Positions 16,375 to 48,239 of a stretch of 64,000 bases of DNA are shown piece by piece (the first letter of the stretch is position 1; each line of letters starts with the position of its first letter). A model generated the notes under the pieces. It was not told the origin of the DNA. It saw nothing but the letters and a program-made list of their open reading frames with translations, and did no database searches. The position numbers and the translations under genes are program-made. Origin of the DNA: Candidatus Oxydemutator sp. (lineage in GTDB: Bacteria; Pseudomonadota; Gammaproteobacteria; Poriferisulfidales; Oxydemutatoraceae); NCBI GenBank assembly GCA_965203445.1, contig OZ241883.1, forward strand, positions 128,001 to 192,000, given 5' to 3'.

Positions 16375-16526
16375 TTTTGTTCTGGGCGAAGCGCACTATC
16401 GTATCAACCGCCACGCAATGGCCCGCATGCCCGGCATGGAAGTCTTTGCCCAAGCGCTGGCGCTGCTGGCGCTTGAACTCCTTGCGCCGACCGCGACTGT
16501 CCAGGCGAACCGCCACCTTGCGCAGT

Positions 16527-16564
16527 ACGACACTTCGGGAACGCCCGTAGGGGCATTCCCTTGC
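16527..16564. repeat. short palindromic element copy 2
   Basis: ACGACACTTCGGGAACGCCCGTAGGGGCATTCCCTTGC, 2 differences from copy 1. Confidence 0.75.
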
Positions 16565-17046
16565 CTTGGGGCACCATCAGGCGAGAGAGCAATCCCGCGC
16601 CGCACTCGAAGCGCATCCTACCTAAATTCGGATGGCGCTCACGCAAGCGTCTGATCTCTTGGACCACCGCCACCGGCCACCGCCGCACCCGCCTGTTCTT
16701 GGGCGCCTTGCTGACGTCGTGCAACCCACTGAGACCGCCTTCGCGGTGGCGCTTGCGCCATGCATACAGGGTGCTGCGCGAAACCCCGAAGGCGTCTTGG
16801 GTTGCAGGCAAGCCATGATTATCCCAGAATATGAGGGCGTCGTATTTGCGTTCGGCACTCGTTGCCATGAGCCTCCATTTTGAAAGCGTAGGAAGCTATT
16901 TTACGCAACCCTGGGACGCGGTAGCCGACGTGCTTTATTTGCATGTCGGCTACCTTTCTGCGGCTAAGATATTGTCCAGAATGTTTCTGGCCCTATACAG
17001 GTCCGCTGCCGGATATGCCGGGGGATGCTATAATCCCTCCCCGATC

Positions 17047-17289: not shown

Positions 17290-17567
17290 TATGCGCCGCC
17301 GGTGGCGCCCGGCGCAGGCCTTCCATCCTCTCGGCCGCCCGAACCGTCGAACTCCGACGACCTGTAGCATTCCCGAAAATGCTTGTTTTGCGCGACATCC
17401 TCAATTCCGGGGATAGGTATCTGTGCTTGTACTTCCACCGGTATAGCCCCATTGAACGCAGTAGTTGTAGCCGGGCAGCCGTCTTTTACAGTACTGGGTT
17501 CCCGAAGGGACTCATATACAACAATGCACCAAAACCAGGGGAATAAGTTTGCGGCAAGTGCGACGTT

Positions 17568-46029: not shown

Positions 46030-46123
46030 CGGTCGGGTTTGCGGCGCCGGGAGGCGCAAAGCGATTCGTCGGGAAAAGACCGGGAGCCTCGCTCGCGCGC
46101 ATAGGCCCGGCGCAACGGAGCGC

Positions 46124-46199
46124 TGGAGCGGGAAACGGGGTTCGAACCCGCGACCTCAACCTTGGCAAGGTTGCGCTCTACCAACTGAGCTATTCCCGC
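46124..46199 (-). tRNA. tRNA-Gly(GCC)
   Basis: Reverse complement GCGGGAATAGCTCAGTTGGTAGAGCGCAACCTTGCCAAGGTTGAGGTCGCGGGTTCGAACCCCGTTTCCCGCTCCA. Confidence 0.97.
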
Positions 46200-46462
46200 G
46201 CCACTTTCGCGGGCGCCATTTTCCACCAACGCCGCCACTCAGTCAACACGATGTACGGCTGCTTCGGGAACGCCCGCGGGGGCGTTCCCTTACCTTTCAG
46301 GGGCGCTCATGGGGCGTTTCCTCGCCTCGGGTTGCTATCAGGCGAGAGGGTGACTCCGCGTCGCACTCGAAGTGCGTGCCACCTGCATTCGGATAAGGTG
46401 CTGCGGCTGACCCCGAATGCGCCTTGGGTTGCAGACAAGCCGTGTTTGTCCCAGAATAGTAG

Positions 46463-47774
46463 GGGAATTATATATCTAAATCTACAGAATAGTGGTGAAG
46501 TACTTGATTTTCTATAGGAATATGGTATGATGTTTTGTGATGAAAGTCCATAGAACAATCCGGTATAGGTTGCATCCTGGTACGCAGGCCAAAGCCCGCA
46601 AGTTGGCGGGATTGGCGGGGGCGTGCAGGTTTGTATGGAATCATTTCGTAGGGAAGTTAAGGGACGAATATCTGGCATATGGATGCTGTAAGCCTTGGTA
46701 TTTTACATTGGGCAAGCAGTTCACTCTGTTACGTCGCCACTGTGAACCCTGGTTGCAGGAATACTCGGCCAACATAGTAAAGGCATCTTTGAAACAGTTG
46801 GAAACGACGTACAAGCAGTTTTATAAGAAAGAGGGCGGATTGCCGAGGTTCCATGCAAAATATATGCATCCCGATAGTTTTCCCTTGGTGACGGGGACGT
46901 TCCATCTGAAAGGCCGTTACTTGCACATCGCCAAGATAGGCGAGGTGCTGTTGCTTGGCCACTATCCCTATCCGGACGGCGTGCCGAAGTCCGGCGCGGT
47001 CAAGCGGGAATGCGGCAGGTGGTATGCGTATATCACGTATGAAGTGGAACAATCCGAAGCATTGAAACCTGTAAGAGAAGTCGGCATAGACCGCAACGTC
47101 GGTCAGGTAACATTATCCGACGGGACGATGTATCGTATGCCGGATACGGCAAAACATGAACGTCGCGTCAGGCGTTATCAGAAGAAGATGGCCAGGCGAC
47201 AGGGGCCGAACCGCAAGAAAGGGATCAAGGCGTCGAACCGGTGGAAGCGCGCACAGTTGCTTCATCAGAAGGCACAGGCCACGTTGCGACACGTCAGACG
47301 GAATTGGTGCCATGGCGTATCGAGGGAAGTGGCCGATAAATACTCCCTTGTGCACCTGGAGCAGTTGAACAATCCAGGGATGACAAGAAGCGTCAAGGGA
47401 ACAAAGGAGAAACCCGGAACCAACGTTCGCGCGAAGAGCGGCTTGAACCGCGTGATCCTGGCGTCATGCTGGGGCAAGTTTCACCAGTGCCTGGACTACA
47501 AGACGAATACGAATTACATAAACCCTGCATACACAAGTCAGACATGCAATAAATGCGGGAACGTAGATAAAGAAAACAGAAAGACGCAGGCGGCGTTTAT
47601 TTGCACCGCTTGCGGTCATCGGGACAATGCGGATGTAAATGCCACATCGAATATATTGGCCTTCGGGAATGGGGCTACTGGACGTGGAGGCGGCGAGGTT
47701 ACTCGGCCTGTGAAGCGTCAAATGGATACCAGAAATCAACAAGAAAGTCTTGTAGATTTAGGTATATAATTCCC
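46463..47774 (+). mobile_element. non-autonomous tnpB cassette with 24-bp TIRs and 8-bp TSD (IS1595-family-like ends)
   Basis: Left TIR GGGAATTATATATCTAAATCTACA (46463-46486) vs right TIR reverse complement GGGAATTATATACCTAAATCTACA (47751-47774), 23/24 identical; AATAGTAG duplicated at 46455-46462 and 47775-47782. Confidence 0.9.
46537..47769 (+). CDS. tnpB: TnpB RNA-guided endonuclease
   Basis: N-terminal YRLHP..GACRFVWN; RuvC-I VGIDRN, RuvC-II LEQL, Zn finger CNKC..CTAC, RuvC-III NADVNA; start GTG 46537 or ATG 46540. Confidence 0.93.
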   Translation: MMKVHRTIRYRLHPGTQAKARKLAGLAGACRFVWNHFVGKLRDEYLAYGCCKPWYFTLGKQFTLLRRHCEPWLQEYSANIVKASLKQLETTYKQFYKKEGGLPRFHAKYMHPDSFPLVTGTFHLKGRYLHIAKIGEVLLLGHYPYPDGVPKSGAVKRECGRWYAYITYEVEQSEALKPVREVGIDRNVGQVTLSDGTMYRMPDTAKHERRVRRYQKKMARRQGPNRKKGIKASNRWKRAQLLHQKAQATLRHVRRNWCHGVSREVADKYSLVHLEQLNNPGMTRSVKGTKEKPGTNVRAKSGLNRVILASCWGKFHQCLDYKTNTNYINPAYTSQTCNKCGNVDKENRKTQAAFICTACGHRDNADVNATSNILAFGNGATGRGGGEVTRPVKRQMDTRNQQESLVDLGI

Positions 47775-47794
47775 AATAGTAGAACATCCCATTG
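47620..47794 (+). ncRNA. predicted omegaRNA overlapping the tnpB 3' end (boundaries approximate)
   Basis: Stem-loops at about 47681-47719 and 47726-47765; TnpB omegaRNAs are known to overlap the ORF 3' end and element right end. Confidence 0.5.
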
Positions 47795-48032
47795 GCGTTC
47801 GGCGCTTGTCGCCATGGGCTTCCATACGGTTTGCACAGGAAGCTATTTTACGCAACCCTGGGACGCGGTAGCCGACGTGCTTTATCTGCACTTCGGCTAT
47901 CTTTTTGTGGCCAGGATATTGGCCAGTACGTTTCTGGCCCTATACAGAGTAATCCGCGCCGAATAGTGGTAGTCTTTGCGCCATGGGTTCGTCGCGGATT
48001 TCACAAGCCCGTGCGAGGATCACCTATACGGG

Positions 48033-48103
48033 GGCTAGTTGGCAGAGTGGTTATGCAGCGGCCTGCAAAGCCGTGTACGCCGGTTCGATTCCGGCACTAG
48101 CCT
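48033..48103 (+). tRNA. tRNA-Cys(GCA)
   Basis: GGCTAGT/ACTAGCC acceptor stem, CTGCAAA anticodon loop, GGTTCGATTCC T arm; followed by TCA rather than CCA. Confidence 0.93.
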
Positions 48104-48136
48104 TCACCCGCACCGTCGCCGGCGACGGCGAAAAAC

Positions 48137-48220
48137 GGGGACGTGGCGGAATTGGCAGACGCTTTGGACTTAAAATCCAATGGCTTGAGAGCCGTGCGGG
48201 TTCGAGTCCCGCCGTCCCCA
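48137..48220 (+). tRNA. tRNA-Leu(TAA)
   Basis: GGGGACG/CGTCCCC acceptor stem, CTTAAAA anticodon loop, long variable arm, GGTTCGAGTCC; followed by CCG. Confidence 0.93.
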
Positions 48221-48239
48221 CCGCTTCGGCGCACCGCCG

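Follow-up and report, generated by a model that had tools for sequence, protein, structure and literature searches.

TnpB is the ancestor of Cas12, and its usual explanation is that it assists the scarless transposition of IS605 and IS607 elements by homing. Association of TnpB with transposases of the DDE type has also been described: the main text of Altae-Tran et al. (2023, PNAS, PMC10691335) sets out six DDE-associated branches (DDE-1 to DDE-6), all of which have inverted terminal repeats, together with solo TnpBs which share almost the same ends with systems that bear a transposase and which were concluded to have moved in trans. The only DDE family named in that main text is IS630 (for DDE-6), and neither IS1595 nor the terms 'target site duplication' or TSD occur in it. 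ISL2, IS630 and IS1031 are the DDE partners of TnpB listed in a 2026 review, where the association is called rare and its benefit is questioned (PMC13565253). The present work concerns a 1312-bp tnpB cassette located in a 64,000-nt stretch of the genome of Candidatus Oxydemutator sp. (GCA_965203445.1, contig OZ241883.1, positions 128,001 to 192,000; hereafter the window). We consider it very probable that this cassette belongs, as a non-autonomous member, to a cut-and-paste DDE lineage of the IS1595 family and that its sole cargo is tnpB along with a putative guide-RNA scaffold. The kind, that is TnpB on DDE ends and moved in trans, is one already published in 2023; what is added here is the IS1595 partner and the presence of an element with matching ends in the same genome, while a putative fusion of the RNA to a terminal inverted repeat (TIR) and a one-sided G at the insertion sites are new leads which render the mechanism testable. 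A preliminary description of this stretch had called the pairing little described, which holds for the IS1595 family only, as DDE-linked TnpBs including solo copies appeared in 2023 (PMC10691335). A full-text literature search for TnpB and IS1595 yielded, judged from titles and abstract openings, no paper about this link, and a search for Fanzor and Merlin returned unrelated papers only. The TnpB clade described here may be listed in the supplement of PMC10691335, e.g. among DDE-1 to DDE-5.

The cassette spans positions 46463-47774 of the window and is bounded by 24-bp TIRs at 46463-46486 (plus strand) and 47751-47774 (minus strand), which are complementary at 23 of 24 positions. In the 64-kb window, the 24-bp pattern occurs twice, once at each end of the cassette, where 0 occurrences are expected from 100 shuffles. 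An exact 8-bp target site duplication (TSD), AATAGTAG, is present at 46455-46462 and 47775-47782. The TIRs start with GGG and thus show the GG start of IS1595 ends, and the length of the duplication likewise agrees with this family. The sole long open reading frame (ORF), located at 46537-47769 on the plus strand and identified by profiles and alignment, is tnpB, which encodes 410 amino acids and ends with a TAA stop within the right TIR. The cassette has about 50% G+C compared to 63.6% for the genome. Accordingly, the unit of 1312 bp carrying only tnpB, its inverted ends and its exact duplication are as first described, and the claim of a clean insertion into an IS481 frame was also confirmed: scripted deletion of the cassette together with one TSD copy restored an IS481-like frame of 71 amino acids (...MATSAERQWDVLLFWDKHGL...), and the joined flanking DNA aligned without gaps over 231 nt to window positions 16770-17000 (82% identity), and at 84% identity to genome positions 897873-898106. 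The upstream part of the interrupted remnant (MATSAERQWDV...) lies at 47783-47836 and was assigned by ORF and alignment; the downstream part (...FWDKHGLSATQGAFGVSRSTL...), assigned by ORF, alignment and profile, lies at 46307-46462, both being on the minus strand. The best NCBIfam match of the paralogous ORF at 16404-16868 (minus strand) is the IS481 transposase model with 3e-12, which stays under the cut-off because the ORF is a fragment.

The source genome consists of one contig of 2,378,814 bp and is scored 100% complete. It contains 15 matches to TnpB profiles, 13 of which are full-length open frames. A genome search with the TIRs, as suggested in the preliminary description, placed these ends well beyond the present copy: all 13 full-length copies are bracketed by TIRs that have GGGAATTATATA, with at most one mismatch, as their outer 12 bp, while the inner 12 bp vary among subfamilies, yet match between both ends of each element. 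Eight of the copies have perfect 8-bp TSDs, all of them different, four further TSDs match at 6-7 of 8 positions, and the remaining one is unrelated. In each of the 13 copies the tnpB stop codon is situated 5-19 nt from the element tip and, hence, within the right TIR. The genome also holds partial relatives, a 786-bp deleted copy and several solo ends, as well as two miniature elements with the same ends that are devoid of tnpB (163 bp, genome 113341-113503, and 180 bp, genome 757576-757755).

An autonomous element with the same TIRs, which the preliminary description had proposed to look for, was found in the same genome. This element comprises 2616 bp (genome 1978350-1980965), has TIRs that match at 24 of 24 positions and a perfect TSD, ATCAGAAA, and its TIRs are identical to those of the cassette at 22-23 of 24 positions, i.e., 1-2 positions differ (22/24 for the left TIR of the cassette). 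It encodes a 314-aa protein with the domains Zn_ribbon_IS1595 and DDE_Tnp_IS1595 (Pfam 1e-43; NCBIfam transpos_IS1595 6e-61). This is the sole intact IS1595 transposase in the genome, a second match being a 167-aa fragment, and the tnpB cassettes outnumber the transposase element 13 to 1. The family characteristics given in PMC8101967, an 8-bp TSD and one transposase that has a zinc finger at its N-terminus as well as a DDE_Tnp_IS1595 domain, fit the partner element, and the same source gives GG-start ends for Merlin, a related group of eukaryotic elements. The cassette itself encodes no transposase and is therefore to be regarded as a non-autonomous IS1595 derivative and not as a full family member. 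The proposal that TnpB resides on IS1595-type ends and is mobilized in trans is thus supported by the shared ends and the partner transposase, whereas the direction of evolution implied by the word 'captured' cannot be shown. In the preliminary description, GGnnATTAT-type ends were given as a feature of the ISNwi1-like group, to which the cassette may belong. The '+' subgroups of IS1595, along with ISNwi1, are reportedly those of ISfinder and of Siguier et al. 2009. As in IS1595 elements with passenger genes, GG-start TIRs and 8-bp TSDs are present here, and the partner combines the zinc ribbon and DDE_Tnp_IS1595 domains with a cargo of its own, a 436-aa protein in which an N6/N4 DNA methylase (Pfam 5e-50) is fused to an HNH endonuclease (Pfam 6e-12). 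In the tnpB cassette, unlike other IS1595 cargo cassettes, the cargo is a predicted RNA-guided nuclease, with an RNA scaffold that appears to be fused to the right TIR. The methylase-HNH protein of the partner might represent a single-chain restriction-modification system or an orphan methylase.

The enzymes which commonly accompany tnpB are missing from this genome. Searches of the 100%-complete sequence gave no match for the Y1 transposase (PF01797) and none for serine recombinases or resolvases (PF00239), while the same searches were positive in 6 and 12 of 14 control genomes, respectively. The cassette resembles IS1341-type elements in that it is a tnpB-only unit of about 1.3 kb with the transposase provided in trans and with a 3' guide-RNA region, putative here, that would read into the flank. 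It differs from them, and from IS200/IS605 elements in general, which according to the 2026 review have neither TIRs nor TSD and use Y1 (PMC13565253), in that TIRs and a TSD are present in a genome without Y1. Similarly, it is unlike IS607 elements, which have a serine recombinase and neither TIRs nor TSD, as the cassette has both and the genome has no serine recombinase. A conventional IS200/IS605- or IS607-type tnpB element could still have inserted into a miniature IS1595-type element, so that the TIRs and the TSD would form an outer shell, and both the 163-bp and 180-bp elements without tnpB and a subterminal hairpin situated some 9 to 12 nt inward of the right tip, a geometry like that of IS608-type right ends, would be in line with such an event. 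However, each of the 13 copies has its tnpB stop inside the right TIR, the hairpin's 3' arm is the TIR itself and co-varies with it, and the same tight layout recurs in relatives and in metagenome-assembled genomes (MAGs) of several phyla. In addition, no Y1 transposase or resolvase is present in the complete genome, and the cassette TnpB does not reach the NCBIfam cut-offs of IS200_TnpB (143 versus 425 bits) or IS607_TnpB (88 versus 350 bits). Internal IS605 or IS607 ends, which the preliminary description had considered, do not fit this arrangement. We therefore regard a nested insertion as extremely improbable, and for an IS605 element within a miniature element it is largely refuted by the position of the stop, the covariation of TIR and hairpin and the lack of Y1.

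The assignment to an IS1595-type lineage extends beyond the source genome. In a sample of 40 related genomes, in which TnpB homologues were counted at E <= 1e-30, TnpB is present in 16, with best matches being 45-60% identical. An IS1595 transposase match was obtained for all 16 TnpB-bearing relatives compared to 8 of the 24 without TnpB, with the relatives not being independent of each other. At 14 of 27 loci from these relatives, GG-initial TIRs (at least 17/24) coincide with a TSD of at least 7/8. The relatives also possess simple IS1595 elements of 1246-1410 bp with the same end type, e.g. GGGAATTATGTAGGTAACTTGACA, and 8 of 20 examined have a TSD of 8/8. The more distant set was restricted to one genome per species and consists of the best 80 of 582 relatives at 37-59% amino acid identity, among which 78 loci have both flanks. 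The MAG titles in these best 80 include Candidatus Porisulfidus, Arenicellales, Chromatiales, Rhodothermales, Caldilineaceae, Dadabacteria, Thermodesulfobacteriota, Paracoccaceae and others, and by record title they represent at least five phyla. TIRs and a TSD of at least 7/8 were identified at 34 of the 78 distant loci, 30 of which have an 8/8 duplication; every delimited element measures 1235-1497 bp and, therefore, each carries tnpB only. The end motif is found on the right in 70, on the left in 61 and on both sides in 57 of the 78 loci, as opposed to 2 and 1 of 76 control windows. IS1595 DDE domains were present in all five distant genomes tested, and in one Rhodothermales MAG the left TIR of the cassettes is identical to a repeat of the transposase-bearing elements of about 1.78 kb in that MAG. 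The same MAG (G041) contains at least 23 tnpB cassettes and 55 IS1595 DDE matches. In many of these cassettes a miniature element of about 172 bp precedes the cassette at a distance of 8 bp upstream, and the two move together with an 8-bp TSD of their own.

Many of the groups named in the MAG titles are sponge-associated. The occurrence of the closest relatives in sponge-associated groups from several phyla suggests horizontal spread within one habitat, for which two sequencing-run hits of small share that bear the label sponge metagenome do not count as evidence. A metagenome scan, of which the best 80 of 573 hits (mostly 31-43% identity) were taken and 50 loci had both flanks, gave a different picture: no such ends were identified at 46 of the 50 loci (31-35% identity), TIRs with an 8/8 TSD at L239 only, and the end motif at L238, L240 and L242. 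Thus, the distant metagenomic TnpBs without these ends mark the limit of the clade, and the bias at the insertion sites described below is not replicated there. A TnpB tree annotated by end type, as proposed in the preliminary description, was built as a quick maximum-likelihood tree of 106 proteins that were picked by similarity to the query, with an arbitrary root. On this tree the ends cluster by clade: the end type requires 2 changes, and three end classes require 3 changes compared with a mean of 32.4 after shuffling. The same description had also considered close homologues lacking the TIRs; what we found is that the ends are retained in TnpB homologues both near and remote. The clustering on the tree and the conservation of the ends in relatives and MAGs therefore mark the association as a property of the TnpB clade rather than of one copy. 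In these features the cassettes are similar to the DDE-associated TnpBs in the main text of PMC10691335, where TnpB is likewise located between TIRs, the 3' end of tnpB is close to the transposon end and solo copies share the ends. They differ from that text by the IS1595 partner and in that tnpB is solo in every delimited locus, with the transposase residing in a separate element. A second group of ends was observed in a distant TnpB clade (37-40% identity; L212-L222), where the TIRs start with GGGGCTTCAGG and the units comprise 1.46-1.60 kb. An 8-bp TSD is present at 8/8 in 3 of 11 such loci and at 7/8 in 2 more (genomes G030, G032, G034, G036), and these units look like a second DDE-type end family for TnpB.

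The TnpB protein of the cassette was matched above the respective cut-offs by the Pfam families Cas12f1-like_TNB (7e-15), HTH_OrfB_IS605 (6e-8) and OrfB_IS605 (1e-7), and it scored 200.5 bits with the NCBIfam model guided_TnpB (cut-off 100). An intact RuvC acidic triad and zinc finger had been noted from the single copy, and both hold in an alignment of 14 copies and relatives down to 43% identity, in which D185, E275 and D366 as well as C337, C340, C356 and C359 are invariant. The acidic residues align with the motifs GVD, E and DRDENA of the solved ISDra2 TnpB chains 8h1j/8bf8. These motifs presumably hold the catalytic residues D191, E278 and D361. It might be speculated that TnpB in this setting is no longer a homing nuclease and acts as a regulator or accessory of DDE transposition, e.g. 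as an RNA-guided repressor like TldR, and whether a cut-and-paste element profits from homing is a matter of debate in the 2026 review (PMC13565253). The invariance of the RuvC residues and the zinc-finger cysteines across the 14 sequences, the open frames of all 13 copies in the genome and an RNA fold that is conserved and covarying argue against such a role, which we therefore consider quite unlikely.

The RNA-like fold in question comprises the last ~116 nt of the cassette (47659-47774, plus strand) and overlaps the 3' end of tnpB. This region is conserved at the nucleotide level, e.g. in a block around GAAGCGTCAA that is shared from Gammaproteobacteria to Chloroflexota. RNAalifold applied to 47 right ends revealed two stems, stem A (47659-63 paired with 47671-75) and stem B (47681-85 paired with 47715-19). 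A third stem is the terminal hairpin at 47726-47765, the 3' arm of which corresponds to positions ~10-26 of the right TIR while the 5' arm is located in the variable C-terminal codons of tnpB, and a 9-nt tail, ATAATTCCC (47766-74), follows this hairpin. Counted over the two RNAalifold stems and the base of the third, 91.6% of the cells are paired, compared to 77.5% in column shuffles (0 of 500 were as high) and 31-49% when the partners were slid. Cells with double changes amount to 83 versus 24.5 in shuffles, and the single-sequence fold of the right end has a z of -3.3. The arms of the hairpin vary among subfamilies while their complementarity persists. The hairpin energy among 59 distinct ends is -13.3 kcal/mol at the right end versus -8.5 kcal/mol at the mirrored left end (Wilcoxon 1e-8), and at the right end an element's own arm pairs more stably with the sequence upstream of it than an arm from another subfamily (-13.06 versus -10.08, p=4e-9), an effect that was not found at the left end (p=0.08). 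Upstream of tnpB, a promoter-like sequence, TTGATT-16-TATGAT with TG before the second hexamer, is present at 46504-46531 (plus strand) as a consensus match, with one occurrence compared to 1.7 expected from shuffles; no terminator-like site was detected before the right end. The right-end fold looks like a guide-RNA scaffold (putative omegaRNA) that is fused to the TIR, with the guide predicted to start with the duplicated 8 bp. As an Rfam scan of positions 46300-48000 at E <= 1 returned no match and a search of sequencing runs listed no RNA run with this sequence, we infer the role as a guide-RNA scaffold from conservation.

If a guide starts at the right tip of the cassette, the recognition motif of TnpB must lie directly upstream of the left TSD. 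To read this position, the cassettes were oriented with tnpB on the plus strand and the empty sites were rebuilt. The base at -1, 5' of the left TSD, is G in 51 of 67 distinct cassette sites (A in 13, T in 3, C in 0), which deviates from the flank background of 28% G (binomial 4e-16); in a first set, 42 of 56 sites had G. At the mirror position, C after the right TSD occurs in 16 of the 67 sites (Fisher 2e-9 versus G at -1). In transposase-bearing IS1595 insertions with an 8/8 TSD, G at -1 occurs in 3 of 19 sites and also in 3 of 19 when read in the opposite orientation (Fisher 3e-6), and one further such site does not have G at -1. In the GGGGCTTCAGG-type cassettes, G is found at -1 in 5 of 5 sites. 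The TSDs of the cassettes are AT-rich, as are those of the autonomous elements. In the cassette described here the base at -1 is the G at 46454 (plus strand), which the flank census marks as the candidate last base of a motif resembling a transposon-associated motif (TAM). Because of its position, the G at -1 was read as part of such a motif, and it fits a recognition motif of TnpB, i.e. a candidate TAM. We propose that the motif ends in G and that the terminal C of the TIR gives self-protection.

Alternatively, the upstream G might reflect a target preference of the transposase or the sampling of related sites, with TnpB being a passive passenger or one that acts in a different way. Strong information is restricted to a single position (1 bit at -1, weak at -3, in a search for a longer upstream motif), the sites stem from related elements and genomes and are thus not phylogenetically independent, and the autonomous control consists of 19-20 sites from few genomes. 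Moreover, the left and right TIRs are less alike in the cassettes than in autonomous elements, and in principle this could render the transposition complex asymmetric. Against this stand the side and the position of the bias, both being those required of a TnpB motif if the guide starts at the right end, and the complete lack of C, the base supplied by the TIR at the occupied junction, from the 67 sites. An unrelated repeat family, the GGGGCTTCAGG type, has the G in 5 of 5 sites with a distant TnpB clade, and among autonomous elements with near-perfect TIRs just 5 of 19 sites have a G at -1 or a C at +1, corresponding to 6 of 38 flanks. An origin of the G from transposase preference or sampling thus appears rather unlikely.

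The anatomy of the cassette suggests that an IS1595 transposase made elsewhere, in this genome by the 2616-bp element, binds the 24-bp TIRs and inserts the cassette via an 8-bp staggered cut. tnpB would be transcribed from the promoter at the left end, with the RNA running past the right end into the flank. The last ~116 nt of the cassette would then fold as a scaffold with the final hairpin built on the right TIR, and the guide, starting with the right TSD copy (47775-47782) as its predicted first 8 nt and continuing into the right flank, would match the unoccupied allele. TnpB would read the bases just upstream of the TSD, the last of them being G. Once a site is occupied, this place at the right junction is taken by the TIR's terminal C, a base absent from the insertion sites, which would protect the resident copy. 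Cutting of empty alleles would favor copying or retention of the cassette through recombination, an effect that has been shown for the TnpB of IS605. This arrangement would be similar to Fanzor in that a TnpB-type RNA-guided nuclease resides in a TSD-making transposon. For Fanzor, the 2026 review describes the 5' duplication as belonging to the TAM that is read, and as short and fixed in sequence, e.g. TA or TTAA (PMC13565253). The TSD of the cassette is, in contrast, 8 bp long, variable and AT-rich; it would have to form part of the guide, and the motif would have to lie upstream.

That a scaffold rebuilt on the right TIR, a guide taken from the TSD, an upstream G as motif, a terminal C as shield and the G as a footprint of homing or retention act together in a widespread clade is a tentative reading, to which we give somewhat less than even weight. 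Apart from the single informative position and the dependent sites mentioned above, several points weigh against the overall explanation of the cassette as a non-autonomous IS1595-type unit with a guide-RNA scaffold. Some left ends fold as well, as exemplified by e430970 with -16.3 kcal/mol, and by a cruder count, with at least 8 of 15 TIR positions paired, the right ends (48/59) are closer to the left ends (31/59). Both the RNA with its ends and the guide are predicted from DNA sequence. Very recent movement is unsupported, because the two closest copies of the cassette in the genome are only 97% identical. The inner TIR of the transposase element fits only the subfamily of the present cassette; about six versions of the inner TIR exist among the 13 cassettes, with the sole intact transposase matching just one of them. 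Finally, DDE excision already leaves a break, so that it is less evident than for IS605 what would be gained from a homing nuclease, a point raised in the 2026 review (PMC13565253).

Taken together, the lineage is large and multi-copy and occurs in MAGs titled across many bacterial groups, with TnpB always present as a transposase-less cassette on IS1595-type ends. It provides a testable model of how guide and motif may be laid out around an 8-bp TSD, and the asymmetry of the insertion sites is a natural data set from which, once extended, the motif can be read without any experiment. For annotation, a tnpB-only unit with GGG...CCC TIRs and an 8-bp TSD should not be filed under IS200/IS605. 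If the proposed arrangement is true, RNA-guided cutting would be shown to be useful despite a variable 8-bp TSD and a separately encoded transposase, and the G would represent its footprint at the population level.

The cassette is located between genes for tRNA-Gly (46124-46199, minus strand) and tRNA-Cys/tRNA-Leu (48032-48222, plus strand). The repeat of which the interrupted IS481-like N-terminal remnant is a part occurs in the genome in at least eight partial copies (75-90% identity), and no full transposase is among those seen. In the contigs of four sequencing runs covering 46100-48150, the left junction is bridged as assembled, and none of them joins across the cassette at its borders. 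A joint from 46296 to 47838, obtained in one contig of run X5 (side 35), is mismatched to the cassette ends and probably represents a paralogous repeat. Solo TIR-like sequences with 1-2 mismatches to the outer 12 bp and no partner end nearby are located at window positions 17507, 60868 and 63433, the first of which adjoins the IS481-like paralogue, and these are probably relics of further elements. Outside of recognizable elements, GGnAATTATATAC-like words occur as single copies; with at most two mismatches to the 12-mer the genome has 133 matches, of which 25 are exact. In several of them CGC follows, and these words are candidates for either element relics or host promoter-like sites (TATAAT on the reverse strand).

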